From: Candidatus Omnitrophota bacterium
GTDB lineage: Bacteria; Omnitrophota; Gorgyraeia; Gygaellales; UBA12090
Length of the DNA: 64,000 nucleotides
Direction of reading: 5' to 3'
NCBI GenBank assembly: GCA_030674475.1
Contig: JAUSCZ010000035.1
Location: 74,682 to 138,681 of the forward strand
Below are positions 1,248 to 20,257 of this stretch, piece by piece (positions within the stretch are counted from its first letter, which is position 1; each line of letters opens with the position of its first letter). The position numbers and the translations under genes are program-made. The notes below the pieces were generated by a model. That model made no database searches. It worked only from the letters and a program-made list of their open reading frames with translations, and was not told where the DNA came from.

Positions 1248-1748
1248 TTACCGGCTTATCTTTAAAATTTTATACTTAATAATTCCGGCCGGGACATTTA
1301 TCTCCACGATATCATTAACTTTTTTCTGCAGAATGGCCTTTCCTACGGGTGAGTCTAAGGAAATCTTTCCCACCTCATAATCAGCCTCTTCCTTAGACAC
1401 CAGCATATACTCACACTCTTCCGCGGTATCTAAATCTGAGAGTAGAACCTTGGCTCCAAAAAAAACCTGGTCCTGAGGAATGTTCTTGGAGTCAATAACC
1501 TTGGCCCGGGATAATTTATCCTTGAACTCGGCTATTCTTTTTTCGCAATGGGCCTGCTCGTTTTTGGCGGAGTCGTATTCGGCATTCTCGCTTATGTCCC
1601 CCAGGCTCCTGGCGTACTCTAGAGCCTTAGAAATTTCCCGGCGCTTGGTTTTTTCCAAATACTCCAGCTCTTCTTTTAATTTTTCGTACCCTTGGGGGGT
1701 CAAGTAAACATCATCCAAGCCCATCAATAAATCCTCCCTTAAAATCAA
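1248..1748 (-). CDS. greA: transcription elongation factor GreA (likely true start at 1724, MGLDDVYL, with an AGGGAGGA SD upstream)
   Basis: N-terminal coiled-coil LTPQGYEKLKEELEYL plus a C-terminal FKBP-like domain. ~158 aa from the internal Met. Confidence 0.85.
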   Translation of the reverse strand: MILREDLLMGLDDVYLTPQGYEKLKEELEYLEKTKRREISKALEYARSLGDISENAEYDSAKNEQAHCEKRIAEFKDKLSRAKVIDSKNIPQDQVFFGAKVLLSDLDTAEECEYMLVSKEEADYEVGKISLDSPVGKAILQKKVNDIVEINVPAGIIKYKILKISR

Positions 1749-2644
1749 TTATAAATCAAATACTTAAAAACACCTAAGGCGGCCTTGGCGCCTTCGCCGG
1801 CGGCAATCACAATCTGTTTTTCCGGCACATCCGTAACATCGCCCGCGGCAAATATTCCAGGCACATTGGTCTCGTTGCGGGAATTAACTATAATCTCACC
1901 TGAGTTATTTTTGTCTATTCCGGAAGTAAAATCAGAATTAGGAATAAGCCCAATCTCCACAAAAACCCCCTGAACCGAAAGCAGGTTTTCTTTATCCTCT
2001 TTTTTTATCCTGATCGCGCTGACCATTCTATCGCCCAAAACTTCCTCCACCTTGGTATTATTAAAAATACTTACTTTATCACTTCCCTGAACCGCCTCTC
2101 GCATAACCGCGTCCCCGGTAAGCGCGGGAGCGATATTAATAATATACACCTTATTGGCTATTCTCATCAATTGCAGTGCCGCGTCCAGGGCCGAATTTCC
2201 TCCTCCGATAATGGCCACATCCTTATGAGAAAAAAGCGGGCCGTCGCAGGTAGCGCAATAAGTCAAACCTTTATTCTTAAATTCCTTTTCTCCCGGAACA
2301 TTGAGTTCCCGGGATCTCTTACCAGAGGCGATTATCACGCTTTTAGCCTCATATAAAGCCTTATCGGTCTTAACCTGAATTAAGCCGCCGACTTTCTCGA
2401 TTTCTCGGACCGCCTCATTTTCTTTTAAGGCGATATTAAACTTACGCAGATGTTCCTCAAATTTAAGCACCAACTCCGGCCCGCTGATAAACTGGTATCC
2501 GGTATAATTTTCCACATCTCCGCTTAAGGCGGTCTGCCCCCCGATGTCTTTGGTAATAATCAAAGATTCTATTCTCTTGCGGACAGCGTAGATAGCCGCG
2601 GTGATACCGGCCGGGCCTGCCCCTATGATTATTACATCATACAT
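1745..2644 (-). CDS. trxB: thioredoxin-disulfide reductase
   Basis: GxGxxG FAD motif IIGAGPAG, redox-active CATC in YCATCDGPLF, and a second NAD(P) GGGNSA motif. Confidence 0.9.
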   Translation of the reverse strand: MYDVIIIGAGPAGITAAIYAVRKRIESLIITKDIGGQTALSGDVENYTGYQFISGPELVLKFEEHLRKFNIALKENEAVREIEKVGGLIQVKTDKALYEAKSVIIASGKRSRELNVPGEKEFKNKGLTYCATCDGPLFSHKDVAIIGGGNSALDAALQLMRIANKVYIINIAPALTGDAVMREAVQGSDKVSIFNNTKVEEVLGDRMVSAIRIKKEDKENLLSVQGVFVEIGLIPNSDFTSGIDKNNSGEIIVNSRNETNVPGIFAAGDVTDVPEKQIVIAAGEGAKAALGVFKYLIYN

Positions 2645-3106
2645 TTATTTCAAGTGCTTCGGCGTAAGGTCAATAACTTCTTCAACCTTAATCCGAATCA
2701 TATACTTGGGATTAGGCAGGAGCGCCTCAGGATGCAGATGGTGGCCTTTTTCTCCCCGGATATTCTTTAACAGGCGGCTGGTTACCCGGCTGACAATCGC
2801 CTCATCCCAGGACTTGATTAGCGACGGATCTAAATTTTCTTTAGGCACTATTTCTGCCCGGCCCTTGAGTGAATAGCCGCTAAAACTATGTTCATCGGCA
2901 AAAGTCAGGCTGATGACGGGATTTTTATTGAGATTGCGGTAAGTCCTGCCCATATACAAATCCAGAAGATAGATTTGCCCCTCAGGGACTATCTTGAGTA
3001 TGCCTTTACAGGCATTATGGATAGTGCCGTCGCTATCAAGGGTTGAAACAATAACATATCCCTGTTTTTTAAGAAAATGTATTGTATCTTCAGGAAGCAT
3101 ATTCAC
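2645..3106 (-). CDS. pyridoxamine 5'-phosphate oxidase-like FMN-binding split-barrel family protein
   Basis: About 150 aa with a general-stress-protein-26-like pattern (VSTLDSDG...ISLTF...GYSLKGRAEIV). Family-level call only. Confidence 0.5.
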   Translation of the reverse strand: MNMLPEDTIHFLKKQGYVIVSTLDSDGTIHNACKGILKIVPEGQIYLLDLYMGRTYRNLNKNPVISLTFADEHSFSGYSLKGRAEIVPKENLDPSLIKSWDEAIVSRVTSRLLKNIRGEKGHHLHPEALLPNPKYMIRIKVEEVIDLTPKHLK

Positions 3107-3132
3107 TGAGCCAACAAGGCAATATTATTAGA

Positions 3133-3200
3133 AAAATAGGGACACATCCCATTTTTACGTCTCCATCTTTCAAGAAAAAATGGGATGTGTCCCTATTTTT
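3133..3200. terminator. 20-bp perfect inverted repeat hairpin (AAAAATAGGGACACATCCCA ... TGGGATGTGTCCCTATTTTT) with T-runs on both sides
   Basis: Read from the sequence; lies between the bacterioferritin-like gene and the PNPOx-like gene. Confidence 0.7.
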
Positions 3201-3208
3201 CTACTGAA

Positions 3209-3685
3209 CTAACCTTCTAAATTCTCAAACATTTCTTCGTGGGTTATCTCTTCTCCCAGTATGTGAGTTACCAACTGATAAGTATCGTGGTCTTTACCAA
3301 AGGTTTTCTTGGCAATCTTATTATAGACCTCAATTGCCCCAGCCTCAGCCGCTTCCACTAATTTAATAATCCCATCGTAATCGGAAAGTTCCTTGACTAC
3401 TCCCGGATAAGGAGCATTGGCATTTTTCTCTAAGTTAACCGGATTATTAGTGGGAAGTCCGCCCAGCTCAATAATTCTATTAGCCACTTCCTGGGCATGC
3501 TCTAACTCATCCTTGGCAATTTTATTTAAAAACTCCGACATATCTTCATAACCCTTGCCTTCCACGGTTTGAGCCATATACCAATAGGCATAAAAAGCCA
3601 ACCACTCGTCGCAATAGGCCTTATCCAAATCCTTGATTAAATCTTTTAGATCTAAATCCGCTATTTCTTTAGCCTTTCTTCCCAT
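3209..3685 (-). CDS. bacterioferritin-like / ferritin-like di-iron carboxylate protein
   Basis: 158 aa with two E-x2-H motifs (DELEHAQ, EEITHEE) in a four-helix ferritin-like layout, similar to Bfr. Confidence 0.6.
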   Translation of the reverse strand: MGRKAKEIADLDLKDLIKDLDKAYCDEWLAFYAYWYMAQTVEGKGYEDMSEFLNKIAKDELEHAQEVANRIIELGGLPTNNPVNLEKNANAPYPGVVKELSDYDGIIKLVEAAEAGAIEVYNKIAKKTFGKDHDTYQLVTHILGEEITHEEMFENLEG

Positions 3686-3972: not shown

Positions 3973-5031
3973 CTAATGATGTTCGGGTAATTTCCCAATA
4001 GGTTCATAAACACAGTAGGGCTCTTGGCTAAGATAATCTCCGGTGGCCCAATAGCCGCGGGCGCGACAGCCTCCGCAAATCTTTTTATATTCGCATATTC
4101 CGCACTTACCGGATAGCCTGGAATCGTCCCTTAGGGCCTTAAAAAGTTCGCTTTCCAGCCAAATTTCCCGGAAAGTTTGTTTTCTTAAATCTCCTGCCGC
4201 AAGCGGCAGATACCCGCAGCCAAAAACCTCTCCCTTATAAGAGACAAAACAAACCCCTTGCCCAGCCAGGCACCCCTTAGTAACCGCGTGAAAGCCATTC
4301 TTGCTTACAGACGAATTATTTTTCTCTTTGACCGAACGTTGGCGCAGGATACGGTAATAATGGGGAGCGCAGGTAGGCTTGATATGGATGGGAAAATTCT
4401 GCTGGAAATCGTAGAGCCGATTAAAGGCTTCCTCGTATTCTAAAGGTGAAATCTCATCGCCTTCAAGGGCCAGGCCGCGGCCCACCGGCACCAGAAAAAA
4501 AACATGATAAGAGAGCGCTCCCAACTTTAAGGCCAGAGCGCCGATATTCTCTAACTCGCTTAAATTTTTCCTGGTGATGGTGGTATTTATCTGGAGTTTT
4601 ATTCCAGCGTTTTTTATATTTTCAATTCCGGCTAAGGTCCTGGCGAACGCCCCCGGCCGGCCGCAGAAATCATCGTGAGCCTGAGCGGTTGAACCGTAGA
4701 TAGATACCGCGGTCAAGACTATGCCGCTTTCCTTTAGCCGCCCGGCAGTTTCCTGGTCAATCAAGGCGGCGTTAGTTGCCAGGGTGGCCTTGAGGCCGCG
4801 CTGATGAGCATAATGAATAAGCTCGTAAATATCTTCCCGGACTAATGCCTCACCCCCGGAGAAAACCAGGATAGGCTTAGCCAAAGCGGAAAGCTGATCA
4901 ATAAACCTTTTGGCCTCTAAAGTGCTTAATTCATCAGGCGAGCGCGATTTCTGGGCCTGGGCCCGGCAGTGCGGACACTCAAGATTGCAGGCCCGGGTGG
5001 TTTCCCAAAACACTAAACGCAAGTCCATCAT
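3973..5031 (-). CDS. radical SAM protein with C-terminal SPASM-type cysteine cluster
   Basis: CNLECPHC (Cx3Cx2C) near the N-terminus, plus a C-terminal cluster GKCGICEYKKICGGCRARGY. Confidence 0.75.
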   Translation of the reverse strand: MMDLRLVFWETTRACNLECPHCRAQAQKSRSPDELSTLEAKRFIDQLSALAKPILVFSGGEALVREDIYELIHYAHQRGLKATLATNAALIDQETAGRLKESGIVLTAVSIYGSTAQAHDDFCGRPGAFARTLAGIENIKNAGIKLQINTTITRKNLSELENIGALALKLGALSYHVFFLVPVGRGLALEGDEISPLEYEEAFNRLYDFQQNFPIHIKPTCAPHYYRILRQRSVKEKNNSSVSKNGFHAVTKGCLAGQGVCFVSYKGEVFGCGYLPLAAGDLRKQTFREIWLESELFKALRDDSRLSGKCGICEYKKICGGCRARGYWATGDYLSQEPYCVYEPIGKLPEHH

Positions 5032-5039: not shown

Positions 5040-6035
5040 TTATCTCTCCGCGAATCCTTTCTTAAGGATGAAATCTCCCAGGCCAAGAAGGCACCGGCGG
5101 TATTTAGAGTCTTTAAGCGCCTTAAGCTTATCTTTGGCCAAGCTGATATAAGATGAGCTGATTTTTCTGGTATAAAGATAGGCGTCAGAATCAGCGAGTT
5201 CATTTCTTATTCTCTCTAAAGAATTAGTGTCTTTTGATTTAAGCATCTCTTTCAGGCGGCTCCTCTGGTTTTTATCAGAACTCTTTAAGAGATTTAAAAG
5301 CGGCAGGGTTACTTCACCCACGCTGATATCCTGTCCCGGGGCTTTACCTAAATTGTTTTCTCCCCCTGTCAGATCCAGATAATCATCAACTATTTGAAAG
5401 GCGATTCCGAAATTAAGGCCGTAGTGCCTGAGGGAACTTCGCAGAGAGCGGGAAGAATTAGCGGAAATCGCCCCCACTTCACAGGAAGCCGCGAATAGGC
5501 TGGCGGTCTTTTTTTTGATAATCATCAGGTAGCGGTCTTTAAGCAGAGAAAGATTATCCCTTTCCACTACCTGGCTCAGCTCTCCTTCGCACATACTCTT
5601 GGTGGCTGAGCTGATACAGCTTAAAATATCGGTGTTGCCGCAATTAGAAATCAGTTCAAAAGCCAAAGAATAAAGGTAATCCCCTAAGGTAATCGAGACA
5701 TCCATGCCCCAGCGGGAATTAACCGTGGGGTTGTTATGGCGCCGCTGGGAATGGTCAATTACATCGTCGTGGATCAAAGAGGCCATATGGATAAGCTCGA
5801 TGCTAGAGGCAATATTAATTAGCTGTTTATTGACCGGGGAATCGGCCTTTCCATTGGAGGCCTTGGCCGAAAGAATAACCAAAGCCGGGCGCATCCTCTT
5901 GCCGCCAGATTCCAACAGAAAGCGATTCACCTTTAAAATGGATGAATTCCTGGCCTCACTTAAAGAGGTTTTAATCACCTCCTCAACCTGAGTAAGCTCT
6001 TCGCGTATCGGCTGATAAATTTCTTTTAATCGCAT
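5040..6035 (-). CDS. all-trans polyprenyl diphosphate synthase (IspB/HepT-like)
   Basis: LIHDDVIDHSQRRH and FQIVDDYLDLTG motifs. Confidence 0.8.
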   Translation of the reverse strand: MRLKEIYQPIREELTQVEEVIKTSLSEARNSSILKVNRFLLESGGKRMRPALVILSAKASNGKADSPVNKQLINIASSIELIHMASLIHDDVIDHSQRRHNNPTVNSRWGMDVSITLGDYLYSLAFELISNCGNTDILSCISSATKSMCEGELSQVVERDNLSLLKDRYLMIIKKKTASLFAASCEVGAISANSSRSLRSSLRHYGLNFGIAFQIVDDYLDLTGGENNLGKAPGQDISVGEVTLPLLNLLKSSDKNQRSRLKEMLKSKDTNSLERIRNELADSDAYLYTRKISSSYISLAKDKLKALKDSKYRRCLLGLGDFILKKGFAER

Positions 6036-6050: not shown

Positions 6051-7124
6051 CTAAAACTTATCATAATATATATGTATCTCCTTGACCCCTTTTTTGGTCA
6101 AGACTTTGATTGCCGCGTCAATCATTGGCGGAGGGCCGCAAAGATAGGCCTCGGTATTTCCGTTAGAACGGATAAAACGCTCAACCGCCTGGGTAACAAA
6201 GCCGGTTTCCCCGGCCCATTTATCCTCAGCCTTAGGCTCGGAAAGCACCGGGATATACTTAAAATTAGGACATTCCTTTTCTAAAGCTTCGAGCTCCTCA
6301 GTATAAAAAATGTCCTTTTTGCTCCTGGCCCCAAAAAAATAGCTGATTGGACGCGGCATACCTTTTTCTTTCAAGTGAAGAAGTATGGAGCGGATAGGAG
6401 CCATGCCGCAGCCTCCCCCGATGCACACTATTTCTCTCTGGGAATCCTCCCGCAAGTAAAAGCTTCCGTAGGGCCCGGTTACGGTTATTTCATCATCAAC
6501 ATCCAAAACCTCGTGTATATAGGAAGAACACAGGCCCCCGGGAACCAAGCGCACAATCAGCTCAATCACGCCCACTTGCGAAGGGGCCGAGGCAACGGAA
6601 TAAGCCCGAAATTCATCAACTTCCGGAATCCGGAATTGGATGTATTGACCGGCCTTAAAACTTATCTTATCCGGCTCCAGCAATTTCATCACCACATACT
6701 TGATATCGTGGGTTAAATCGGCAATCTTAAGCACCCGGGTCTTATATTCCCTGGCCTCTAAGAGGTCTTCGGAAATCAAGACCTCAATGTCATTCTTCAC
6801 CTTCACCTGACAGGCCAGCCGTATGCCTTTGAGCCTATCTTCACGATTCACAAAGACTTCTTCGGTAGGCAGGATATGTCCGCCTCCGCTTAAAACCTCA
6901 ACCTTACAATAGCCGCAGGTAGCCTTGCCTCCGCAGGCTGAGGGGACAAAAATCTTATTCTGGGCAAAATAGCTTAAAAGGCTGTCTCCGCCGTTAACCG
7001 TGAGTATCTTTTCCTTATTAATAGTTACTTTGCACTCTCCGTAGGTAACCAAAAAACGCTCAGCGATAATCAACAAAAGCGCCACCACCACCAGAATCAT
7101 ATCCATTACTAAGATCGAGAGCAT
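6051..7124 (-). CDS. NqrF-like membrane-anchored 2Fe-2S ferredoxin / FAD / NAD(H) oxidoreductase subunit
   Basis: N-terminal TM helix, then CGGKATCGYC...C (plant-type 2Fe-2S), the RAYSVAS FAD motif, and a GGGCGMAP NAD-binding motif. It occupies the position where rnfB normally sits. Confidence 0.7.
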   Translation of the reverse strand: MLSILVMDMILVVVALLLIIAERFLVTYGECKVTINKEKILTVNGGDSLLSYFAQNKIFVPSACGGKATCGYCKVEVLSGGGHILPTEEVFVNREDRLKGIRLACQVKVKNDIEVLISEDLLEAREYKTRVLKIADLTHDIKYVVMKLLEPDKISFKAGQYIQFRIPEVDEFRAYSVASAPSQVGVIELIVRLVPGGLCSSYIHEVLDVDDEITVTGPYGSFYLREDSQREIVCIGGGCGMAPIRSILLHLKEKGMPRPISYFFGARSKKDIFYTEELEALEKECPNFKYIPVLSEPKAEDKWAGETGFVTQAVERFIRSNGNTEAYLCGPPPMIDAAIKVLTKKGVKEIHIYYDKF

Positions 7125-7127
7125 TTT

Positions 7128-7712
7128 CTATTGTAAGGTAATAATACCGGCAAAGCCCATAAAGGCCAGGGCCATCAGGCCGGCGATAATCATTGTTATC
7201 CCCGGTCCGCGCAGGCCTTTGGGAATATCACTCACCAGCATCAGCTTTTCCTTTATCGCCGCCATCAAGATAATGGCCAGGGCCCAGCCGCAGGAGGTGC
7301 CGAAGGAATAACAGACCGTCTGGATAAAGTTATAATTACGTAAAACCATAAAAAGGCAGACCGCCAAAACAATGCAATTAACTGTAATCAAAGGCAAAAA
7401 TATCCCGAATGACGACTGTAGCGGGGGGAAAAACTTTTCAATAAGCATCTCTAACAACTGAACGGTGGCGGCGATGATAATGATAAAGATTAAAAAAGCC
7501 AGAATCTCAGAATGTAAGGGCACCAGCACCTTCCAGTATATCGGCCAATTGATAATCGCGGTTAAAGTTACCACAAAAATTATAGCTATGCCCATACCCA
7601 CGGCAGTTTTGTAATTCTTAGAAATGATTATAAACGGGCACATCCCCAAGATATAAACCAGGGCGATATTATGGGTAAAAATTGAGGCGATTAATATAGT
7701 TAAAGGATTCAT
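7128..7712 (-). CDS. rnfA: Rnf/Nqr ion-translocating complex subunit A (RnfA/NqrE family)
   Basis: 194-aa polytopic membrane protein. Family resemblance and operon position. Confidence 0.75.
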   Translation of the reverse strand: MNPLTILIASIFTHNIALVYILGMCPFIIISKNYKTAVGMGIAIIFVVTLTAIINWPIYWKVLVPLHSEILAFLIFIIIIAATVQLLEMLIEKFFPPLQSSFGIFLPLITVNCIVLAVCLFMVLRNYNFIQTVCYSFGTSCGWALAIILMAAIKEKLMLVSDIPKGLRGPGITMIIAGLMALAFMGFAGIITLQ

Positions 7713-7715
7713 CTC

Positions 7716-8345
7716 TTATTCCGTCTTCTTAGCAATAGTCCTGAATATCCACAAATAAACCCCTAAAAGGAAAAAGGCTCCGGGGGCGATGGTCAAAATC
7801 ACCCAGTTAGTCCAGGCCCCAGGCATCACCCTGTAACCTAAAATAGTGCCAAAGCCCAGAGGTTCGCGGATTAAAGCCATCAAAATCAGCATAAAGCTAT
7901 AACCAACACCATAGCCTAAACCATCCAAGAAAGAAAGCCAGGGCCCATTCTTGATCGCAAAGGCCTCGGCCCGGCCCATCAGGATACAGTTGGTAATAAT
8001 CAGGCCCACATAAGGGCCCATCTCTTCGCTGATAGGAGGAAAATAGGCCTTCAAAACCCTATCCACACAGATTACAAAGGTAGAGATAATTACCATATAA
8101 GCCAGCATCCGCACCCGGGAAGGTATGACATTACGAAAGAACGAAACAAAAAGACAGCTAAAGGCGGTGCATAAAGTAACCCCTATCCCCATAGCCAGGG
8201 CGTTCTCTAAGCGGTTAGTTATGGCCAGCATTGAGCAGATACCCAAAACCACGCAGAATGTGGGATGATCCTGCCACATCCCGATAGTTAAGGTCTTAAA
8301 CCACTTGGTCTGCTTTATGCTTCTTTTAAGCTGTTTCTTGGGCAT
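7716..8345 (-). CDS. rnfE: Rnf/Nqr complex subunit E (RnfE/NqrD family)
   Basis: 209-aa polytopic membrane protein paralogous to the A subunit; operon position. Confidence 0.75.
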   Translation of the reverse strand: MPKKQLKRSIKQTKWFKTLTIGMWQDHPTFCVVLGICSMLAITNRLENALAMGIGVTLCTAFSCLFVSFFRNVIPSRVRMLAYMVIISTFVICVDRVLKAYFPPISEEMGPYVGLIITNCILMGRAEAFAIKNGPWLSFLDGLGYGVGYSFMLILMALIREPLGFGTILGYRVMPGAWTNWVILTIAPGAFFLLGVYLWIFRTIAKKTE

Positions 8346-8435
8346 GGACCCTCGCTCCGCTCGGGAGTAGCCAGAGGCCAGTTGCCAGAGGCCAGATTTT
8401 TTTCTGGCTTCTGGCTTCTGGTTTCTGGTTACTAC
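8346..8435. repeat. 5'-UTR heptamer-repeat element: CCCTCGCTCCGCTCGGGAG-CCAGAGGCCAGTTGCCAGAGGCCAG-T7-CTGGCTTCTGGCTTCTGGTTTCTGGTTACT (copy 1 of 3)
   Basis: Near-identical to 58158-58243 and partially to 56055-56089. Lies immediately 5' of the rnfE ATG. The CCAGAGG and CTGGYTT arms can pair through G-U wobbles. Confidence 0.7.
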
Positions 8436-9007
8436 TTTCCGATCAGCAGGCTGAGCTTCTTTTGTATCGTTTCATTCAGCAATTTTTCTAAGGCCTTGCT
8501 GGAGCCAGTGGCGCCGGTAATCGCGTCTACTTCATTATTAGCCTTGGCCTTGCCGGAAGGCACAAAACTTATTCTAGGAATAATCTCTTTATTTCTAAAG
8601 CCTTTCAAATATTCAAATTCAGCGATCCTGCCGCCTAAACCAGGGGTTTCTTCTTGATGCAGTATCCTCAGCACCCGAATAGTCTTTAAATCCGAATTTA
8701 TGCTGAGTATGCCTTCAATAGTCCCCCATAATCCCGGCCCTTTAAATTTAAAGGCGGTGGTGCCGTCAACAGAAGCATAAAACACGCTATCTCCCTTCTC
8801 TAAGATCTTGACATTTTCATCAAAAAGCTCTAAGACATTTTCCGGACGGTAAGGAATCTCTAAAACATCCAAGACCGCGGATTTTAATTTCAATTCTTCA
8901 TTGCGGGCAATCATTGTCGCGGTTAAGGAGTTGATTCCAAAAAGCAATCCCCCGGAAATCGTTCCCATCGCGACCACAAAAATCAATATTCTTAAAGCGG
9001 ATTTCAT
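8432..9007 (-). CDS. rnfG: Rnf/Nqr complex subunit G (FMN-binding, RnfG/NqrC family)
   Basis: Single N-terminal TM helix, followed by the DAITGATGSS covalent-FMN attachment motif. Confidence 0.8.
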   Translation of the reverse strand: MKSALRILIFVVAMGTISGGLLFGINSLTATMIARNEELKLKSAVLDVLEIPYRPENVLELFDENVKILEKGDSVFYASVDGTTAFKFKGPGLWGTIEGILSINSDLKTIRVLRILHQEETPGLGGRIAEFEYLKGFRNKEIIPRISFVPSGKAKANNEVDAITGATGSSKALEKLLNETIQKKLSLLIGK

Positions 9008-10074
9008 TTCTTGATTTTGGGATATTTTACCCCTAACACCAGACGGTCAATCAAAGGGCTGAAGACATTAATCAAAAGCAGGCTAAACATTACCCCTTCC
9101 ACATAACCGGAAAGTCCGCGGATAAGCACCACCAGAAACCCAAAGAGAACCCCGCAAATCCATTTACCGGCTTTGGTAAAAGGGCTGGTTACCGGATCGG
9201 TGAGCATAAAAAACGCGCCTAACAACAGGCCTCCGCTGGATATCTGAAATAGTGCCGGAGCAAATTTGTCCGGGGCAAAAAAATTGCCAATCCCGGCGCA
9301 AATCACAACCGATAACAAAGCGCTAAGCGGAAGCCGCCAGTTGCTTATTTTGGCAAAAATCAGGAATATCCCGCCGATAAGTATCCCTAAACGGAAGGTC
9401 TCCCCAATACATCCCGGACTTCCTCCTAAAAGCAGATTCCCGAAATCAGCAATTAGGCGCTCATTTCTAAAGGTGATTAAAGGTGTGGCCTGACTGACAG
9501 CATCCGCGGAAAATTTTAAGAATCCTCCCGCGCCTTGATTGAAAGGCATGGGCCAGAAAGTAGTCATCGCCGAGGGAAAGGCCACGCTCAAGAAAATCCT
9601 ACCCACAATCGCCGGATTAAAGATATTCCTGCCGGTTCCCCCAAAAACCTCTTTACCAAAGACCACCCCAAATATTACTCCCAGCGCCACCATCCAAAGA
9701 GGAACATTCGGGGGAAGGATTAAGGGAAAGAGTAAGCCGGTAACCAGAAAACCTTCGTGAATCTCTTTTTTGCGCGCTATGGCAAAAATAGTTTCCACTA
9801 AACCACCGAAGATGTAAGAAACCGCGATTACCGCCAAAACCCTTAAGCCCCATAAATATACCGCGGCAACCACCACCGGAATAAGAGCGGCAATCACCAA
9901 GCTCATATAGCGCTTGATATCCATACAATCCAGTATGTGGGGAACGGTGGTAACCTTATCCGTTCCAAAGAATATCTCATCAGCCGCGCTGATTGCCGGC
10001 TTCCAGGGCGCCAGGAGCTTATTTTTTTGGCTCAGCTTATTTAGATTATTGAAAATATTCCTCAAGATTTTCAT
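9004..10074 (-). CDS. rnfD: Rnf/Nqr complex subunit D (RnfD/NqrB family)
   Basis: 356-aa polytopic membrane protein; operon position. Confidence 0.75.
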   Translation of the reverse strand: MKILRNIFNNLNKLSQKNKLLAPWKPAISAADEIFFGTDKVTTVPHILDCMDIKRYMSLVIAALIPVVVAAVYLWGLRVLAVIAVSYIFGGLVETIFAIARKKEIHEGFLVTGLLFPLILPPNVPLWMVALGVIFGVVFGKEVFGGTGRNIFNPAIVGRIFLSVAFPSAMTTFWPMPFNQGAGGFLKFSADAVSQATPLITFRNERLIADFGNLLLGGSPGCIGETFRLGILIGGIFLIFAKISNWRLPLSALLSVVICAGIGNFFAPDKFAPALFQISSGGLLLGAFFMLTDPVTSPFTKAGKWICGVLFGFLVVLIRGLSGYVEGVMFSLLLINVFSPLIDRLVLGVKYPKIKK

Positions 10075-10083
10075 TTTAGCTTG

Positions 10084-11580
10084 TTATAATTCCTTAGGTC
10101 CGCGGTATTCTTCAATGCCTTTAAGGTTATCAAAATAAGGCAGAATGCACTGGTTACGGTCACAGCCCTGGATAGTCAGCTTTTCCTGCCCTTCTCTTAT
10201 CTGTTTGGCCAAGGGAATCTTGGAAGGGCAAACATAACTACACAGGCCGCACTCAATACAGTTAAATATGCGCAGGTTCATTAAGGTTTCATCAAGGATA
10301 TTACACTGAACATATTTGACTAAAAGATGAGGAATAATCCCCACCGGGCAAACCTCTTCGCAGTAATTACAGCTTATGCAGGGACGCTCCTCACCGTGTT
10401 TATTGGTGTCGCAGGTCTTTTGAATCCTTGGGGAAAGCTTGGCCATAAAGGCATTGGAGTAAGAGTCGCTTTTTAACCCCGGATTCAGAAAAGACAAAAA
10501 CTTTCTTTCGCGGTTTTCCACCAGACCGATTATCTGAGAATAGGTCTTATCTATGGGAAGGCTTAGATCCTTAAGTTCAAATCCAGTCAGCAGGCCGTTA
10601 AGCACAAAGCGCGCGCTAAGGCCTTCCTTAATTCTTCCCTCAACCACCTCTTTTAAGGGAGTGCCGATCCTGGCCTTGATATGCAGGGGCTCCTTGAATG
10701 CCGGGCCGCAAAGAGCGATAGTCCTTTCAATCAGGGGCTTACCCTCAATCACCGCCTCATAACTAAGCAAAACCGCCTGAAGATTCAAAATCACCGCTCC
10801 TACATTTGCCGCGGAATAACCATAGGGGAACTTCTGCTTTAAGATAGTCGGGACCAGCATCTCATCATAGCCTTGAGGATACTTAGGCTCCAGGGGATAA
10901 AGCTCCAGCCAATCATAAGCAGAAGTAAGTTTTTCTATCTCCTCCAGGATTTTCCGGCTGTGGATGCTTAAAGCCAAATACACCCGGGCATGAGGCATAA
11001 TTTTACGCAGTATCTTTATGCCTTCAATCAGGTTTAAAATATTTTTACCTTTAAGTAAAAGTTCCGGAGAAATATTGTATGGCTCTGAACCCACCCCGTG
11101 AACAATCAGGCTTTTAGCCTCTTTAGGCAGAATTATCGAACTACGCATCCGGGTTGGGATGCCTTCCCGGTCAAGGGCGGTAACCCCGGAAAGGTAAAGT
11201 ATTTTTTCTATCTCCTCAGAAGCAAGGCTTTCCCAATTATTTATGGCTCCCGGCAATTTTTGGTATCGCGGATTGCCGTCTCCTTTAATTGAAACCATAA
11301 GGCAGTCGCGCTTAAAATAATTTACCCTCTTAACCTCTTCCACTACGCCGTTAACACTGGAATGCACCGGGCTGGACACACCATACTCGCTATGGCCGAT
11401 AATCTGCCCGGCCAAAACCCCCTCTCCAGCCTTAACCAAGCAGTCTCCTTCTCCGCCGAAACCCTGGCGCAGAGGTATGGTAACCCTAAGAGGAACTCTT
11501 ACCTCTTCTAAAGTATCCTTGGGCTGGCCTTCAAAGTTTATAAATCTGTATCCGCCTGAAAATGTCTTGGATTTTCGCAT
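10084..11580 (-). CDS. rnfC: Rnf complex subunit C (two 4Fe-4S ferredoxin motifs)
   Basis: RnfC/NqrA-type N-terminal domain, plus C-terminal CISCNYCEEVCP and CIECGLCSYVCP. The dicluster is RnfC-specific and absent from NqrA. Confidence 0.8.
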   Translation of the reverse strand: MRKSKTFSGGYRFINFEGQPKDTLEEVRVPLRVTIPLRQGFGGEGDCLVKAGEGVLAGQIIGHSEYGVSSPVHSSVNGVVEEVKRVNYFKRDCLMVSIKGDGNPRYQKLPGAINNWESLASEEIEKILYLSGVTALDREGIPTRMRSSIILPKEAKSLIVHGVGSEPYNISPELLLKGKNILNLIEGIKILRKIMPHARVYLALSIHSRKILEEIEKLTSAYDWLELYPLEPKYPQGYDEMLVPTILKQKFPYGYSAANVGAVILNLQAVLLSYEAVIEGKPLIERTIALCGPAFKEPLHIKARIGTPLKEVVEGRIKEGLSARFVLNGLLTGFELKDLSLPIDKTYSQIIGLVENRERKFLSFLNPGLKSDSYSNAFMAKLSPRIQKTCDTNKHGEERPCISCNYCEEVCPVGIIPHLLVKYVQCNILDETLMNLRIFNCIECGLCSYVCPSKIPLAKQIREGQEKLTIQGCDRNQCILPYFDNLKGIEEYRGPKEL

Positions 11581-11753
11581 GCTGGCTTGTTAATAATTTC
11601 ACAATCTAAATTTAAATAAAAAATGCTATTTTTGACGCAAACAGCATAACGGTTAAAATAACCCAAAAAACACCGTCTGTCAAGTTAAATCAGTAGGGGT
11701 GTCAAGCCAAATTAGAAATGTCGTATTATTATATTGGGATGACAGTTAAATCA

Positions 11754-11782
11754 GTAGGGGCAGGTTCAGAACCTGCCCCTAC
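11754..11782. repeat. REP-like palindrome variant GTAGGGGCAGGTTCAGAACCTGCCCCTAC overlapping the stop codon of the MiaB-like gene; likely terminator
   Basis: Perfect inverted repeat read from the sequence. Its left arm GTTAAATCAGTAGGGG is duplicated at 11684-11699. Confidence 0.65.
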
Positions 11783-13140
11783 ACTTTTTCCGCGATAAGG
11801 CCGTCTTTGTGGATTTTTAGCGGCCGGGCGGTAACAATTGTATTTACCGCGATTCCCGGCCCCTCAGGGAGAAATACCTTGATATAATTTCCGCTATGGC
11901 TGGGGAAAAATCCATCATCCGCGAAGCCGCCTGGCGATTCAACCAGCACGTCCAGATCCTTACCAATATATTGCCGGCAGAAATCCCGCGCTAATTCCTG
12001 AGCCAATTCCCGCGCCTGCTTTATCCTATCTTTGATAATCTCGGGCCTCACCGTTGCCGGAAATCTCCAAGCGGCTGTATTCTTACGTGGGCTAAAAGGA
12101 AAGATGTGTATCTTTGCCGGGCGGACTTCTCTTAAAAAATTAAGGGTATTCTTAAAATTTTCCTCTTCTTCCCCGGGAAAACCCACCATAATATCGGTAG
12201 TCAACCCGATATCCGGCATAAGCCTCCTCAGCTTAAGGATTAACTCGCGGCAATCTTCAGCTGAGGCCTTGCGGTTCATCAACTTCAATAGTGTATCATC
12301 CCCACTTTGAAAAGAAATATGCAGATGAGGCATCAGCTTCTTAGAGGAAGCCATCTTTTCTGTCAGGCAATCGCGGACATCCAGGGCTTCAATTGAGCTA
12401 AGCCGGATACGCGAAATCCCGTCAATTTCCTCTAAGGCTTCAATAACCCTAAGCAAGCCGTCTTTAAGGCCCAGATCCTTTCCATAAGCGCCTAAGCAAA
12501 TCCCGCAAAGCACTATCTCCTTATAGCCGTTTTCAGCTAAACCTCTGGCTTCCTCAATAATTTCCACTAAAAAGCGGCTGCGGGATGAACCGCGCAATCT
12601 GGGAATTATACAATAAGAACAGCCGTTATCACAACCGTCCTGAACCTTCAGGAATGCCCGGGTGTGCCTATGAAAAGCGCTGATGGTTCGACTACGCTCA
12701 CCATCAATCCTGAGCGAAATCGAAGGACTGATGGTTGGTTTTTTAATACCTGATAACAGTTCAACTCTGGGAAGTAACTGTGTCATTGCGAGGGGTTTTT
12801 CAGTGTTAGCTAAAATAAAATCGGCAAGACGGTCTTTCTCTTGGTTTCCTAAAACCCCTGCCACCCCTTTAAAGCGCTTTAGCTTCTCCGGGTCATTTTC
12901 CGCGGAACAACCGGTAACAAAAACCCGGGCCCGGGGGTGAGAGCGAGAGAGTTTGCGAATCTCCTCTTGAGATAAAGTATCGGCCCTGCGGGTAACCGCG
13001 CAGGTATTCACTATATACACATCCGCGCCGGGTGAATCCTTGCTCTCTTTAAATCCCAGGGCAATCATTCTCTCCCGCAGAACCTGGCTTTCATATTGAT
13101 TAACCTTACAACCTAAAGTTTTAACCTCAAATGTTTTCAT
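11779..13140 (-). CDS. MiaB/RimO-family radical SAM methylthiotransferase (ORF called to 13173; probable start at 13140, MKTFEVKTLGC)
   Basis: N-terminal MTTase cysteines (KTLGCKVNQYES), a radical SAM CSYC motif, and a C-terminal TRAM-like region. Confidence 0.8.
   Translation of the reverse strand: MKTFEVKTLGCKVNQYESQVLRERMIALGFKESKDSPGADVYIVNTCAVTRRADTLSQEEIRKLSRSHPRARVFVTGCSAENDPEKLKRFKGVAGVLGNQEKDRLADFILANTEKPLAMTQLLPRVELLSGIKKPTISPSISLRIDGERSRTISAFHRHTRAFLKVQDGCDNGCSYCIIPRLRGSSRSRFLVEIIEEARGLAENGYKEIVLCGICLGAYGKDLGLKDGLLRVIEALEEIDGISRIRLSSIEALDVRDCLTEKMASSKKLMPHLHISFQSGDDTLLKLMNRKASAEDCRELILKLRRLMPDIGLTTDIMVGFPGEEEENFKNTLNFLREVRPAKIHIFPFSPRKNTAAWRFPATVRPEIIKDRIKQARELAQELARDFCRQYIGKDLDVLVESPGGFADDGFFPSHSGNYIKVFLPEGPGIAVNTIVTARPLKIHKDGLIAEKV
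12680..12732. repeat. in-frame intragenic palindromic element, family A copy 1 (CTGATGGTTCGACTACGCTCACCATCAATCCTGAGCGAAATCGAAGGACTGAT)
   Basis: 52 of 53 nt identical to 13693-13745, which lies inside a different gene and reading frame. Confidence 0.8.
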
Positions 13141-13141
13141 A

Positions 13142-13930
13142 CTATGACGTGAATAAACGCAAAAAGGCCACAACGCTGATTGCCGCGGTATCTACCTTCA
13201 AAACCAAATCTCCCAAAGACGCCCCAATACAACCGTTTTCCTTGGCTGACTTGATTTCCCGTGGGCTAAAATCGCCTTCCGGGCCGATAAAAATTATTAT
13301 TGAGGAGGGCTTAGTGCGCTGTGTAATAAAATCGCAAAAAACCTCTTTTAGGGATTTATTTCCTGGGCCTAAATGCGGAATAACCGCCAGTTCATAATTT
13401 TTTACCTGAGAGACAACTTTACTAAATTCACTGATCGGCTCAATCTCCGGAAGTTTTATCCTGCCGCACTGCTTAGAGGCCTCAACCGCAATCGCCTGCC
13501 AGCGCTTCAGCTTTTCTTTAGCCTTCTCAGGAGAATATTTAACTATGGTTCTTTCAGTCTTTATAGGTATAATCCTATCCACACCCAGATCCACGGTCTT
13601 TTCAATAATATAGTCCATCTTGACTTTCTTAGGCAGGGCGCAGGCTAAAGTGAGAGCTAATTCTGCAGACATAGCTTTTCTGACTTTACCCACTGATGGT
13701 TCGACTACGCTCACCATCAATCCTGAGCGAAGTCGAAGGACTGATAACTCCACCTTATTCTTAGCAATACTATCAATCAGACACTCGTATTCCCGGGACT
13801 TACCGTCAAAAACCAGCACCTGGTCTCCTTTTTTAAGCCGCCTAACCGAAGACAAGTGATGAATCTGGCCGGGGTCTAAAATAGTTATTCTATCCCGGAT
13901 TATATTCGCGCGAGGGCAATAGATACGCAT
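13142..13930 (-). CDS. rsmE: 16S rRNA (uracil1498-N3)-methyltransferase RsmE
   Basis: PUA-like N-terminal domain plus a SPOUT C-terminal domain, ~260 aa. Confidence 0.7.
   Translation of the reverse strand: MRIYCPRANIIRDRITILDPGQIHHLSSVRRLKKGDQVLVFDGKSREYECLIDSIAKNKVELSVLRLRSGLMVSVVEPSVGKVRKAMSAELALTLACALPKKVKMDYIIEKTVDLGVDRIIPIKTERTIVKYSPEKAKEKLKRWQAIAVEASKQCGRIKLPEIEPISEFSKVVSQVKNYELAVIPHLGPGNKSLKEVFCDFITQRTKPSSIIIFIGPEGDFSPREIKSAKENGCIGASLGDLVLKVDTAAISVVAFLRLFTS
13693..13745. repeat. in-frame intragenic palindromic element, family A copy 2
   Basis: Same 53 nt as 12680-12732. Translated in rsmE as SVLRLRSGLMVSVVEPSV, versus ISPSISLRIDGERSRTISA in the MiaB-like gene. Confidence 0.8.
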
Positions 13931-14014
13931 AATAAGAAGAAACTAAAAAAACCATTAAAAAAACAAAAACAATTTTGGTAATAACCGCTGTTTAAGTTAT
14001 AATATAGGAAAGGA

Positions 14015-16219
14015 TTGGTGTTGTCAATGCTGTCACTTATAATGTCACTCATAATCTTCTGCTTAGGATTAGGTTCGATTATCTCCCAGTTCGTATTTCT
14101 GCGTGAACTGCACACCACCTTCCAGGGAAATGAACTCTCCTTGAGCCTGATATTATTCTCCTGGCTATTTGGTTCCGGAATAGGCGGCCTCTTAGGATTT
14201 TTCTTTTCCTTAAGGAAAAGAAAATCTATCCATTCGAATTACCTCAAAAATTTATTAAGCCTCATCCTGATATTCTCCGCCTTTTGGCTTTTTATCAGCC
14301 TATTCCTCAGCCGCGGCTTAAATCTGTTTCTCTCTATCAGTCCTTTTGAAATACTCCAGCCCGGGCAAATCCTCTTGATTTCAACCATAGTCATAGTCCC
14401 TCAGACAATTACCGTGGGATTATCCTTTATCCTTATCTGCTCAATAATCCAGAATCCCATTAAGGCTTATCTTTTAGAGGCCCTGGGGGCGTTTTTCGCC
14501 GGCCTGTTAAGCCTGATCCTGATAAAATATTTTAACAACTGCCAAATCATCTGGACAATAGCAATAATTTATACCGCATCCGGCCTTCTGCTTTTAAATA
14601 AAAAACTCACATATTATCGGCTCCTGCTAATAATATGGGCCTCCTGCGCTATCTTATCTCTAGCCATGCTTAGCAAGATTGAAGAGAGCACCCAAAATCT
14701 GCGCTTTGGACCTCAAAAACTTATTTACTCTACAGATTCTATCTATGCCAATATCGCGATTGTCAAAAACGCTGAATACTCCTACAGCCTTTATGAAAAT
14801 GGTAAACTCTCTTTCTCAACTGAAGACAGCGAATCAATTGAAGAATGGGCCCATATGCTTTTACTCAGCCACGCCACGCCGCGAAAGATTTTGCTTATCG
14901 GAGGAGGCGTCTCCGGAGTCATCTCCGAAATACTCAAACATCCAATTAAATCTATAGACTATCTGGAGCCGGATAAAAAGCTGATAGAATCTGTCCTAAA
15001 ACATATCCCCCAAAGCGCCTTTTATGGCCTTAGAGATAAAAAAGTAACTATATACAATCAAGACGCCCGGCCTTTCATCAAAGCTGCTTTTACTAAATAC
15101 GACTTAATTATTCTAAATTTAGGCGGCCCCTCCAGCTTGCAGTTAAACCGCTTCTACACCCAGGAGTTCTTTGAAAAGATAAAGAATATTTTAAGCCAAG
15201 AAGGCAGATTCTGTTTTTCTTTTGAATCCAAGGAAGATATCCTCGCCGGACAACTCCTGAAATATAACTCCTGTCTCTATAAAAGCGCTAAATCGGTATT
15301 CCCTTATCTTCAACTTATTCCCGGCGAACGCCTGACCCTCATCGGCTCAAGCGAAAATATCCCTAAAATAAACCCCGAAGAATTAGCCGCGAGATTTAAG
15401 GAAAGAGACATCCAAAGCAAATACTTTACGCCATATCATATCAAGGCAAAACTATTCCGGCAGGAGTATATCCAAAAAAGGCTGGAGGAAAATTTTAACC
15501 TTGCCAGCATAAACCGCGATTATTATCCTTCAGGTTTTTTCTATTATTTAGGCCTGCGGGGAAAACAAAGCTGGTTGAATTTCAACCGGATGTGGGAACT
15601 CTCCGGAAAAATAAAAATGATTTATGGCTTTGGCTGTATGGAAAGCCAAACCATTGCCTTGCTGGCTTACTGGATTGCCACGATGCTAATCCTTGGGGTT
15701 ATTGGACGCAAGAATATCGTTAATTTGTCCGTCTTCTCCAGCGGCTTCTATGGTATCGCCTTAGCAATAATTATCAGCCTGCTCTTTCAGATAAATCTGG
15801 GCTTTCTTTATTACCGCCTGGGAATGATTGTGGCTAATTTTATGTTAGGGCTTTCCTTAGGAGGGATTTTGTTTATATACCTGCGGAAAACAAAGCTATC
15901 CTGGGAAAGGGCGTTATTTTTATCGGAAATAGCCTTAGGAATTATTTCTCTACTGGCCGCGTTTATCTTAAAAGATAACCAACTCACTTATTTCCTGCTT
16001 ACCTTACTGGCGGGAATTATAATCGGCTTTGAATTCGGAATATTCTATAGCCGGAAAAAGACAATTACTATTTATATTTTAGATTTGTCCGGGGCCTGTC
16101 TGGGGAGCCTGTTGACCGGCTTAATCTTTGTTCCGGTATTAGGCATATATAACACCTGTTTACTTATTTCATCCGCCAAGCTTATCACTGCTTTTTTTCT
16201 GAGAATACCAAAGCGCTGA
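14015..16219 (+). CDS. multi-pass membrane protein fused to spermidine synthase-like (PABS) domain
   Basis: Many N- and C-terminal TM helices surround a central LLIGGGVSGV...IDYLEPD aminopropyltransferase-like Rossmann motif. Confidence 0.65.
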   Translation: MVLSMLSLIMSLIIFCLGLGSIISQFVFLRELHTTFQGNELSLSLILFSWLFGSGIGGLLGFFFSLRKRKSIHSNYLKNLLSLILIFSAFWLFISLFLSRGLNLFLSISPFEILQPGQILLISTIVIVPQTITVGLSFILICSIIQNPIKAYLLEALGAFFAGLLSLILIKYFNNCQIIWTIAIIYTASGLLLLNKKLTYYRLLLIIWASCAILSLAMLSKIEESTQNLRFGPQKLIYSTDSIYANIAIVKNAEYSYSLYENGKLSFSTEDSESIEEWAHMLLLSHATPRKILLIGGGVSGVISEILKHPIKSIDYLEPDKKLIESVLKHIPQSAFYGLRDKKVTIYNQDARPFIKAAFTKYDLIILNLGGPSSLQLNRFYTQEFFEKIKNILSQEGRFCFSFESKEDILAGQLLKYNSCLYKSAKSVFPYLQLIPGERLTLIGSSENIPKINPEELAARFKERDIQSKYFTPYHIKAKLFRQEYIQKRLEENFNLASINRDYYPSGFFYYLGLRGKQSWLNFNRMWELSGKIKMIYGFGCMESQTIALLAYWIATMLILGVIGRKNIVNLSVFSSGFYGIALAIIISLLFQINLGFLYYRLGMIVANFMLGLSLGGILFIYLRKTKLSWERALFLSEIALGIISLLAAFILKDNQLTYFLLTLLAGIIIGFEFGIFYSRKKTITIYILDLSGACLGSLLTGLIFVPVLGIYNTCLLISSAKLITAFFLRIPKR

Positions 16220-19039: not shown

Positions 19040-19495
19040 TTACCAGGAATAATCCGCGATTGTTTCTCCGTCGGTAATGTTTATAGAAATAACACCGGGA
19101 TCTGTTCCGCCTTTTTTATGTTTCCCACGTAAGCGCGCCGCGGTGGCAGTTGCTCTGGCAGCTAGCCCCGTGCCGCTGACTCCGGTTACCGCATATTCCC
19201 AGTCAGCGTTATTATAAATATCCACATTCAAAGTTGACCTTGCGGTATTACCGTTATTGTCTGACCCAAAAGTGGCAGAAGTATAGTTATTATTATCAAT
19301 CTTGTACATCTGCTCAGCACTGCGGATAGTTCCCAGAGCAGTCTTGGCTTCTTTTTTGTGCATTTCGTCAACTGTTTTATTGTAAAGAGGCATGGCAATA
19401 GCTGTTACTATGGCTACAATTATCAGGGTAACCATAATCTCCATTATGGTAAAGCCGACCACGGATATACTGTTAAGGGTTCTTGGTTTATTCAT
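19040..19495 (-). CDS. type IV pilin / pseudopilin (prepilin-type N-terminal methylation domain)
   Basis: GFTIMEIMVTLIIVAIV N-terminal hydrophobic helix following a short leader. Confidence 0.75.
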   Translation of the reverse strand: MNKPRTLNSISVVGFTIMEIMVTLIIVAIVTAIAMPLYNKTVDEMHKKEAKTALGTIRSAEQMYKIDNNNYTSATFGSDNNGNTARSTLNVDIYNNADWEYAVTGVSGTGLAARATATAARLRGKHKKGGTDPGVISINITDGETIADYSW

Positions 19496-20253: not shown

Positions 20254-20257
20254 TTTT

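Follow-up and report, generated by a model that had tools for sequence, protein, structure and literature searches.

An Omnitrophota operon that pairs an NqrF-type reductase with a homologue of NqrA and RnfC containing two iron–sulfur cluster motifs

Among redox-driven ion pumps, RNF and NQR form a class of their own with no other known members; NQR is an antibiotic target. The operon described here codes for a complex of this superfamily in a Candidatus Omnitrophota bacterium (assembly GCA_030674475.1, contig JAUSCZ010000035.1). It lies within a stretch of 64,000 nucleotides that was analyzed as a whole and is referred to as the window; coordinates belong to this 64-kb window unless another locus is named. 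According to the listing of open reading frames (ORFs), six intact and co-directional ORFs on the minus strand, designated g1 to g6, fill positions 6051-11580 exactly, in the order RnfC/NqrA-like, D/B, G/C, E/D, A/E and NqrF. They are tightly packed, with successive intergenic gaps of 9, -4, 86, 3 and 3 bp. The first gene, g1 (10084-11580, 498 amino acids), is the NqrA/RnfC homologue and matches the Pfam families RnfC_N, Complex1_51K and 4Fe-4S dicluster. It is followed by the NqrB/RnfD homologue g2 (9004-10074, 356 amino acids, NQR2_RnfD_RnfE), the NqrC/RnfG homologue g3 (8432-9007, 191 amino acids, FMN_bind), and two proteins of the Rnf-Nqr family, namely the NqrD/RnfE homologue g4 (7716-8345, 209 amino acids) and the NqrE/RnfA homologue g5 (7128-7712, 194 amino acids). 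The last gene, g6 (6051-7124, 357 amino acids), codes for an NqrF-type subunit with the domains Fer2, FAD_binding_6 and NAD_binding_1.

The gene following the A homologue is thus of the NqrF type and takes the position of rnfB. No rnfB polyferredoxin gene is present in the 64-kb window, where, among the ORFs of 50 or more amino acids, a CxxCxxCxxxC motif occurs in g1 alone, and Pfam scans of the other large ORFs of the window returned nothing RnfB-like. A previous sequence-only reading of this DNA had described a clostridial-type C-D-G-E-A gene order that ends in a reductase of NqrF architecture instead of RnfB, and both observations are borne out; the adjacent canonical rnfB that might have undone this description is missing from the window, and the arrangement is repeated in other genomes. 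One of these is an independent metagenome-assembled genome (MAG), Omnitrophica bacterium GWA2_41_15 (locus L010), which has the same gene order at 97% protein identity and evidently represents the same species. The operon is not an assembly artefact, since the same order is found in this MAG and in dozens of other genomes.

The g1 protein contains two intact CxxCxxCxxxCP motifs, CISCNYCEEVCP (residues 401-412) and CIECGLCSYVCP (residues 441-452). In an alignment of 60 diverse relatives with 27-63% identity to g1, all eight cluster cysteines are invariant, and the mean column identity in the family is 68%, a degree of conservation that indicates strong purifying selection. The loops that bind flavin mononucleotide (FMN) and NADH in RnfC and NuoF are missing. 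In a targeted alignment, g1 has ALDREGIPT in place of GxGGxxFPT and GSEPY in place of ECEPY. A linker of about 35 residues between the SLBB-like and ferredoxin domains (g1 residues ~354-395) is common to g1, its relatives and Vibrio cholerae NqrA, and is found in no RnfC of the targeted alignment. V. cholerae NqrA holds a mere relic of the cluster motifs (…LALCTFVCPGK…), whereas both are complete in g1.

Subunits were compared with those of V. cholerae Nqr and of the RNF complexes solved from Clostridium tetanomorphum (7zc6), Acetobacterium woodii (9eri) and Azotobacter vinelandii (8ahx), as represented in the PDB. With phmmer, the best match of g1 is RnfC (7zc6_C, E = 6e-50), in two stretches with a gap over residues 354-395, while V. 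cholerae NqrA (7xk3_A, E = 1e-15) is matched in a single full-length stretch that spans these residues. Among the NCBIfam models, g1 marginally passes rnfC (TIGR01945, 247 bits at a cutoff of 245.95) and remains far under the cutoffs of the nqrA models (120-171 bits at cutoffs of 321-450); the Complex1_51K match amounts to 46 bits. An AlphaFold model of g1 (pLDDT 83.8, pTM 0.88) was compared with Foldseek and yielded TM-scores, normalized by query and target length, of 0.76/0.87 for RnfC and 0.69/0.76 for NqrA, a result that demonstrates homology to both and is silent about any flavin or quinone pocket. Taken together, these features characterize g1 as a protein of NqrA architecture that has lost the nicotinamide/flavin signature and kept the two putative [4Fe-4S] sites of RnfC. 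Judging from its sequence, it is not a working RnfC, because the FMN/NADH loops are gone and the NqrA-type linker is present.

Beyond the ferredoxin domain, g1 extends into a C-terminal tail (GCDRNQCILPYF…YRG, residues 472-498; window 10087-10167) with two further cysteines, C473 and C478. Both reach 90% conservation or more within the Omnitrophota-type clade, to which the tail is specific. It has no counterpart in NqrA, as the alignment with the V. cholerae protein stops at g1 residue 470, and the RnfC matches likewise stop by about residue 470. The AlphaFold confidence over the tail is low.

The protein encoded by g6 consists of an N-terminal transmembrane helix followed by a plant-type 2Fe-2S domain, a flavin adenine dinucleotide (FAD) domain and an NAD(H) domain. 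The sequence displays the hydrophobic N-terminus and the 2Fe-2S cysteines (SACGGKATCGYC...LACQ) as well as the motifs RAYS (residues 173-176) and GGGCGMAP (residues 236-243). It passes the curated nqrF model (TIGR01941, 311.6 bits at a cutoff of 295) and is the only subunit of the six to exceed an NCBIfam NQR equivalog cutoff, the other five remaining under theirs. V. cholerae NqrF is matched over the full length including the transmembrane helix (229 bits), compared with 162 bits for the best match other than NqrF. An insertion of about 35 amino acids that is specific to canonical NqrF is absent.

The membrane subunits show a consistent preference for NQR in the PDB comparison. For g2, V. cholerae NqrB scores 199 bits versus 161, 157 and 148 for the three RnfD proteins; for g4, NqrD scores 173 bits versus 146, 139 and 95 for RnfE; and for g5, NqrE scores 186 bits versus 161, 155 and 133 for RnfA. 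By this measure, none of the solved RNF complexes comes as near to g2, g4 and g5 as V. cholerae NQR does. The NCBIfam models are less clear-cut. The g2 protein reaches 276 bits with nqrB (TIGR01937, cutoff 350) and passes rnfD with 264 bits (TIGR01946, cutoff 207), and g3 is under the cutoffs of both rnfG (70 bits, cutoff 102) and nqrC (64 bits, cutoff 144). The g4 protein scores 225-228 bits with nqrD (cutoffs 235-245) and 165 with rnfE (cutoff 213), and g5 scores 204 bits with nqrE (cutoff 248) and 193 with rnfA (cutoff 229). There is a weak match of g2 residues 24-91 to the N-terminal arm of NqrB (12 bits, i-Evalue 0.91), and g2 aligns with the GG motif of NqrB (G90, G91), although it lacks the loop insertion of about 50 amino acids found in NqrB. 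It also conserves the residues aligned with V. cholerae NqrB D346, F342 and D397 (numbering counted from the alignment); D346 and F342 are positions that have been mutated in V. cholerae (PMC10643135). Candidate flavinylation threonines are present in g2 (T197 in DAVSQAT) and g3 (T167 in DAITGAT), and the conserved cysteine pairs C37/C120 of g4 and C25/C113 of g5 are candidate ligands of the intramembrane cluster. No cofactor motif of the shared core or of NqrF is missing from g1-g6.

The D, E and A homologues of 64 taxa were joined into an alignment of 735 columns, from which a neighbour-joining tree was calculated (Kimura distances, 100 bootstraps), with V. cholerae as the sole canonical NQR anchor; its sequences and those of the three solved RNFs were reconstructed from the PDB alignments. 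In this tree, V. cholerae NQR is nested inside the group of operons with an Fe-S first gene and NqrF (95/100 bootstraps) as sister to a clade of Planctomycetota, Eisenbacteria and Fibrobacteria (90/100), and RNF and NQR group together in 0/100 bootstraps. Three residues of the former FMN loop are furthermore missing from both the Planctomycetota-type clade and V. cholerae NqrA, and the first gene of the planctomycete type is NqrA-like with the Fe-S motifs still present. The curated models are in line with the tree: in a locus from Pirellulales (L051), NqrB and NqrD exceed the curated NQR cutoffs, and in one from Brocadiia (L025), a fully canonical NqrF reaches 485 bits at a cutoff of 295; in both, the first gene has both Fe-S motifs. 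The sequences can therefore be read as a graded series that would lead from RnfC via the type found in the window, with its G-x-PT, SEPY and KYPQG remnants, and the planctomycete type to canonical NqrA. These comparisons place the operon on the NQR side of the RNF/NQR superfamily. The Candidatus Brocadiia operon (L025, positions 8984-15185 of that locus) is the sharpest mosaic in the set of loci: the score of its first gene is above the rnfC cutoff (258 versus 246 bits), its last gene codes for a full-length NqrF, and its NqrB homologue has 400 amino acids.

Close homologues of g1 number in the hundreds and are mostly from Candidatus Omnitrophota MAGs. Their public names are inconsistent and include NqrA, RnfC and '4Fe-4S dicluster domain-containing protein'. 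A HMMER search over 1.84 billion cluster representatives returned 5651 proteins that match g1 at E <= 1e-3. About 100 of the best 150 have the pattern of g1, with two Fe-S motifs but neither the G-loop nor ECEPY. Within these 150, RnfC of the canonical kind, which has both loops, occurs only under ~187 bits, and no cysteine-free NqrA is found. In addition, 185,579 species genomes were scanned by the Fe-S motif pattern, a search that selects Fe-S-bearing relatives only, and 80 loci were obtained. In 69 of the 80, the first gene lacks the RnfC loops; the other 11 have canonical RnfC loops. The gene after the A homologue is of the NqrF type in all 52 loop-less loci that read through, which come from about ten phyla; the remaining 17 of the 69 either stop at a contig end (13) or have atypical layouts (4). 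The 52 NqrF-type genes comprise 33 of full length, 4 cut by a contig end, 11 of a short form and 4 fusions. In contrast, an NqrF-type gene occurs in none of the 11 loci with canonical RnfC loops. Four of these 11 are from Omnitrophota, and in three of the four (L044, L064, L079) rnfA is followed by a gene for a polyferredoxin-like protein. Across the 80 loci, an NqrF-type gene and the loss of the NADH motifs of RnfC thus co-vary without exception, as would be expected if the NADH site had moved rather than doubled.

Carriers include Omnitrophota, Tissierellales, Dethiobacter, Spirochaetota, Eisenbacteria, Fibrobacteria, Bipolaricaulota, Thermotogae and Desulfobulbia-like deltaproteobacteria, as well as Pirellulales, Phycisphaerae, Sedimentisphaerales and Brocadiia among the Planctomycetota. 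The loci stem from many independent studies, and complete chromosomes are among them. The operon type accordingly belongs to a large, old, multi-phylum lineage and is not a local chimera.

The last gene varies in some members of this lineage. The short NqrF form, mostly of 149 amino acids (201 in L015), contains the transmembrane helix and the 2Fe-2S domain only and is found almost exclusively in Spirochaetes (L009, L013-L018, L021-L023, L036; for example L014:14298-14747 and L036:18402-20803). Downstream in these loci are NuoE-like, NuoF-like (598 amino acids) and 2Fe-2S/4Fe-4S NuoG-N-terminal-like genes, and a NuoEF-type flavoprotein appears to have taken the place of the NADH-oxidizing module; no NuoEF was found in the 64-kb window. 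In Desulfofustis-like loci (L068, 7951-8907; L073; L077), the last gene codes for about 318 amino acids, and Pfam identifies that of L068 as an NqrF-type 2Fe-2S domain fused to a NuoE-like thioredoxin-like [2Fe-2S] domain. The same type of fusion is assigned to a Pirellulales locus (L008) by its length and matched region. Loci of Bipolaricaulota and relatives (L026, L028, L030) represent a further reduced arrangement, in which NqrF-like fragments come directly after the Fe-S first gene and a D homologue, without G, E and A.

These results modify the sequence-only reading, which had seen the operon as a Rnf-type complex, possibly a Rnf/Nqr chimera, with RnfC hallmarks in the first gene. The two Cx2Cx2Cx3CP motifs on which it relied are real and invariant across the family, and the covalent-FMN threonines that it had suggested looking for have candidates in g2 and g3. 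The assignment of a true RnfC fails on the lost loops and the NqrA-type linker. The chimera survives in so far as an Fe-S first subunit is combined with NqrF for RnfB; however, g2, g4 and g5 side with NQR, and with 52 of the 80 loci showing it, the combination is not a one-off. That reading had also considered that all subunits might fall inside NQR, with the Fe-S motifs misread. The membrane subunits do lie on the NQR side, but the motifs were no misreading. The label 'Rnf with NqrF instead of RnfB' fits the mosaic but gives it the wrong lineage and, in all likelihood, the wrong chemistry.

The neighbouring genes link the operon to quinones and haem. A long-chain polyprenyl-diphosphate synthase gene (5040-6035, minus strand) starts 15 bp after g6 and is probably co-transcribed with g1-g6. 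Its best models are heptaprenyl, hexaprenyl, solanesyl and octaprenyl synthase, and its product would be a quinone side chain. After a further 8 bp follows a gene for an AhbD-like radical SAM haem b synthase (3973-5031, minus strand; TIGR04545, 481.6 bits at a cutoff of 500). Neighbours of the related operons were clustered across loci and then annotated with Pfam and NCBIfam. A polyprenyl-diphosphate synthase gene adjoins the operon in 18 related loci, on the same strand in 17; MenA does so in 10, exceeding the TIGR00751 cutoff in the best three (L001, L033, L070), and MenG/UbiE in 5. Genes for haem and cytochrome c biogenesis recur as well, with AhbD-like and siroheme-decarboxylase genes in 8 loci each and CcsA in 7, and NapC/NirT-type multihaem cytochromes are found near the operon in 6. 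This neighbourhood points to a menaquinone- and haem-linked respiratory role for the predicted complex, i.e., that of an NADH:menaquinone oxidoreductase. Within the window, neither MenA, MenG nor ApbE was found, so that for this organism the quinone link comes from the polyprenyl synthase and from the relatives.

Taking the evidence as a whole, the operon most likely codes for a membrane-bound ion pump of six subunits that is driven by redox reactions and belongs to the NQR branch, where it would represent a little-derived 'proto-NQR' state and act as an NADH:menaquinone oxidoreductase with an Fe-S-bearing NqrA. A probability of roughly 65% is assigned to this reading. Based on the homology of the shared core and of NqrF to RNF and NQR, NADH would be oxidized at the FAD of g6, and the electrons would pass from the 2Fe-2S center of g6 to the cysteine-ligated intramembrane center of g4/g5 and on to the covalent FMN of g3 at the outer face. 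They would return via the covalent FMN of g2, presumably together with riboflavin, and this path would be coupled to the export of Na+ (or H+). The same double crossing of the membrane, coupled to cation export, has been described for RNF and NQR (PMC12174285; PMC9588780; PMC11889175). NADH, rather than ferredoxin, is the expected donor because an NqrF-type reductase replaces RnfB, in agreement with the ferredoxin-independent entry proposed earlier. The putative [4Fe-4S] clusters of g1 would most likely take up electrons from g2 and pass them out to the final acceptor, since they would lie where the RnfC clusters accept electrons from the riboflavin of RnfD, at a distance of 11.7 Å in 7zc6 (PMC9588780). 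Menaquinone is the favoured final acceptor, as MenA, MenG and polyprenyl synthase genes recur among the neighbours, while ferredoxin is implausible in this role because the pumping direction needs an acceptor more positive than NADH.

Several points weigh against this reading. No biochemistry was found for any member of the family. Canonical NQR reduces quinone at NqrB without any Fe-S cluster; the clusters of g1 may therefore be dispensable for this step or serve another partner. The tree was built by neighbour joining only, with one canonical NQR (V. cholerae) as anchor. Furthermore, g1 keeps the Complex1_51K match and the KYPQG, G-x-PT and SEPY remnants, which are highly conserved in its sub-clade, and some ligand, possibly even FMN, could be bound at its former site. 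The missing MenA, MenG and ApbE genes of the window belong here as well. Polyprenyl synthases also serve other pathways, and Thermotogae and Spirochaetes, which are among the host lineages, are not known for quinone-based respiration.

In a rival reading, the acceptor is not quinone. The complex would be an NADH-driven pump, with g1 handing electrons to a soluble or peripheral acceptor such as an oxidative-stress system of the rubredoxin/rubrerythrin type, a cytochrome or a thiol/disulfide system. Fe-S clusters at a cytoplasmic exit are a natural docking point for a protein partner, and candidates can be named: downstream of the operon in the window, on the same strand, lie genes for Dps/ferritin-like, PPOX-class and thioredoxin-reductase/AhpF-like proteins, and multihaem cytochromes are encoded near the planctomycete loci. 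However, it is the menaquinone genes, and none of these candidates, that are conserved beside the operon in different phyla, and in the window the stress-related genes are separated from the operon by the AhbD gene and by larger gaps. A non-quinone acceptor is accordingly judged unlikely.

Less likely again is a RNF-like ferredoxin:NAD+ oxidoreductase with swapped modules, in which reduced ferredoxin would dock at g1, electrons would take the core path backwards, from D via G to E/A, and g6 would reduce NAD(P)+; in a variant, the ion gradient would power the opposite reaction. Such a function would make use of the complete 2x[4Fe-4S] ferredoxin-like domain of g1, and would accord with the marginal pass of the rnfC model, with a predicted fold slightly nearer to RnfC than to NqrA, and with carriers that are, judging by organism names, mostly ferredoxin-using anaerobes. 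Yet in RNF as well as NQR, the flow from E/A to D is the ion-exporting direction (PMC12174285). Electrons that went from ferredoxin to NAD+ by the opposite route would move downhill in redox potential and at the same time be coupled to ion import, so that nothing would be conserved. Omnitrophota moreover also have canonical rnf operons with RnfB-like genes (the three named above), by which the function is already covered, and the recurrent MenA, MenG and polyprenyl synthase neighbours would be left unexplained.

That nicotinamide sites exist at both ends, for example in an ion-translocating NADH/NADPH transhydrogenase, is very improbable, although g1 matches Complex1_51K and the rnfC model and the NAD(P)H domain of g6 is standard. 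Both FMN/NADH loops are replaced in g1, in the ~100 related cluster representatives and in the 69 related loci, and their loss co-varies perfectly with the gain of NqrF. The earlier suggestion of NADH at both ends is thus unlikely to hold, since g1 has lost both loops and carries the NqrA-type linker. That the operon is decaying, or is a chimera of assembly or binning, as the predominance of MAGs among the relatives might suggest, can practically be dismissed on comparative evidence: 52 independent loci, which come from many studies and phyla and include complete chromosomes, have the identical arrangement, and the six ORFs are intact, tightly spaced and under strong purifying selection.

The preferred NADH:menaquinone pump of the NQR branch can be set against known systems. 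With canonical NQR, the operon shares the six-gene order, the NqrF-type NADH input subunit with its transmembrane anchor, the NqrB-like N-terminal arm and GG motif of g2, the NqrA-type linker of g1, the flavinylation threonines in the B and C homologues and the cysteine pairs in the D and E homologues. It differs in the two [4Fe-4S] motifs of g1, as NqrA is described as cofactor-free in recent structural papers and reviews (PMC12174285; PMC11889175), in the absence of the ~50-residue NqrB loop from g2 and of the ~35-residue NqrF insertion from g6, and in the likely quinone, which would be menaquinone rather than ubiquinone. V. cholerae NQR also has apbE and nqrM in or near its operon, whereas none was found with the operon of the window; neither is present among the window ORFs of at least 150 amino acids, smaller NqrM-type ORFs not having been scanned, and these genes may lie elsewhere in the genome. 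The likeness to RNF consists of the RnfC_N barrel, the NuoF-like fold and the C-terminal 2x[4Fe-4S] domain of g1, whose best sequence and fold matches are RnfC, and of the passed rnfC and rnfD models. The differences are the NqrF-type reductase in place of RnfB, the lack of FMN/NADH loops and the linker in g1, and the greater distance of g2, g4 and g5 from RNF than from NQR.

Non-canonical mixtures of RNF/NQR modules with an NqrF-type NADH domain have been reported from anaerobes. They include NqrA-less nqrBCDEF clusters in Pseudothermotoga lettingae and Clostridium ultunense (PMC5924567), and partial NQR/RNF-like systems and NqrB/RnfD-NqrF fusions (Meheust et al. 2021, PMC8238504). Those systems either have no A/C subunit or are NqrB/RnfD-NqrF fusions, while the window type has the full set of six, its A/C subunit being Fe-S-bearing. 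In the open-access literature, no complex that combines NqrF with such an A subunit was found to be described, and genome papers list these operons simply as 'Nqr' or 'Rnf'. An NQR-lineage pump with an Fe-S NqrA is thus apparently a widespread, undescribed intermediate between RNF and NQR.

According to the model of Reyes-Prieto et al. 2014 (PMC4014512), RnfB was lost first, RnfC then lost its NAD, FMN and cysteine sites, and NqrF was recruited afterwards; the RNF-to-NQR transition is set within Chlorobi/Bacteroidetes. In recent papers and reviews, among them a 2025 review and a 2025 structure paper on A. woodii, it is repeated that NqrA has lost its cofactors; NqrA is left without an assigned function, and NQR is derived from RNF via loss of RnfB and gain of NqrF (PMC12174285; PMC11889175). 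It is tentatively proposed, as an idea that falls somewhat short of an even chance, that the operons described here represent a living RNF-to-NQR transition, in which NqrF has come in and the NADH site of RnfC has been lost while the clusters would still be used as a menaquinone exit or as a second entry, and that canonical NQR arose within this anaerobe-borne group. If this is true, the origin of NQR was not a single step inside Bacteroidota/Chlorobi, the published order of events, with loss of RnfC function and cysteines before the recruitment of NqrF, is wrong, and the long-puzzling NqrA is the relic of a real electron-output module. The family supplies a concrete intermediate that constrains the order of evolutionary events, and makes the ancestral role of NqrA experimentally testable. 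In addition, calls of 'Rnf' versus 'Nqr' decide between a fermentative and a respiratory reading of a genome, and metabolic reconstructions of Omnitrophota, Planctomycetota (including relatives of the anammox bacteria), Spirochaetota, Bipolaricaulota and others are affected.

Some further features of the operon and its surroundings were recorded. A promoter-like site (TTGACA-17-TATTTT, 11655-11683, minus strand) is located about 75 nt upstream of the start codon of g1; it is a consensus match only, and in a scan for promoters and terminators, the counts of sites in the region were not above those in shuffled sequence. The 86-bp gap between g3 and g4, the only sizeable one in the operon, is largely occupied by a palindrome with a 13-bp stem (GCCAGAGGCCAGA…TCTGGCTTCTGGC, 8384-8415), which may function in the processing or stability of the mRNA or in attenuation. 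Downstream of the AhbD gene, the same-strand genes at 1745-3685 (minus strand) resemble an oxidative-stress set in a presumed anaerobe and code for the Dps/ferritin-like protein (3209-3685), the PPOX-class flavoprotein-like protein (2645-3106) and the thioredoxin-reductase/AhpF-C-terminal-like flavoprotein (1745-2644). A second trans-polyprenyl-diphosphate synthase paralogue (106-1200, plus strand) lies within 6 kb of the one at 5040-6035 on the minus strand; its best model, under the cutoff, is a family 2 encapsulin-cargo polyprenyl transferase.

Elsewhere in the window, a fusion of Memo-like and AMMECR1 domains (559 amino acids) is encoded beside a radical SAM protein (16185-18954, minus strand), which is the AmmeMemoRadiSam trio packed in two genes. 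A large type IV pilus/type II secretion cluster (19040-35054, minus strand) contains PilM/O-like proteins, a secretin, a T2SSE ATPase, T2SSF and several N-methyl prepilins, together with two ORFs of 330 and 578 amino acids that have no Pfam match. A single ORF at 36092-36949 fuses an MNT-type nucleotidyltransferase to a HepT-like RNase, so that a single protein combines toxin-antitoxin domains. Near the end of the window lies a gene for an IS200-like Y1 transposase (62617-63303).

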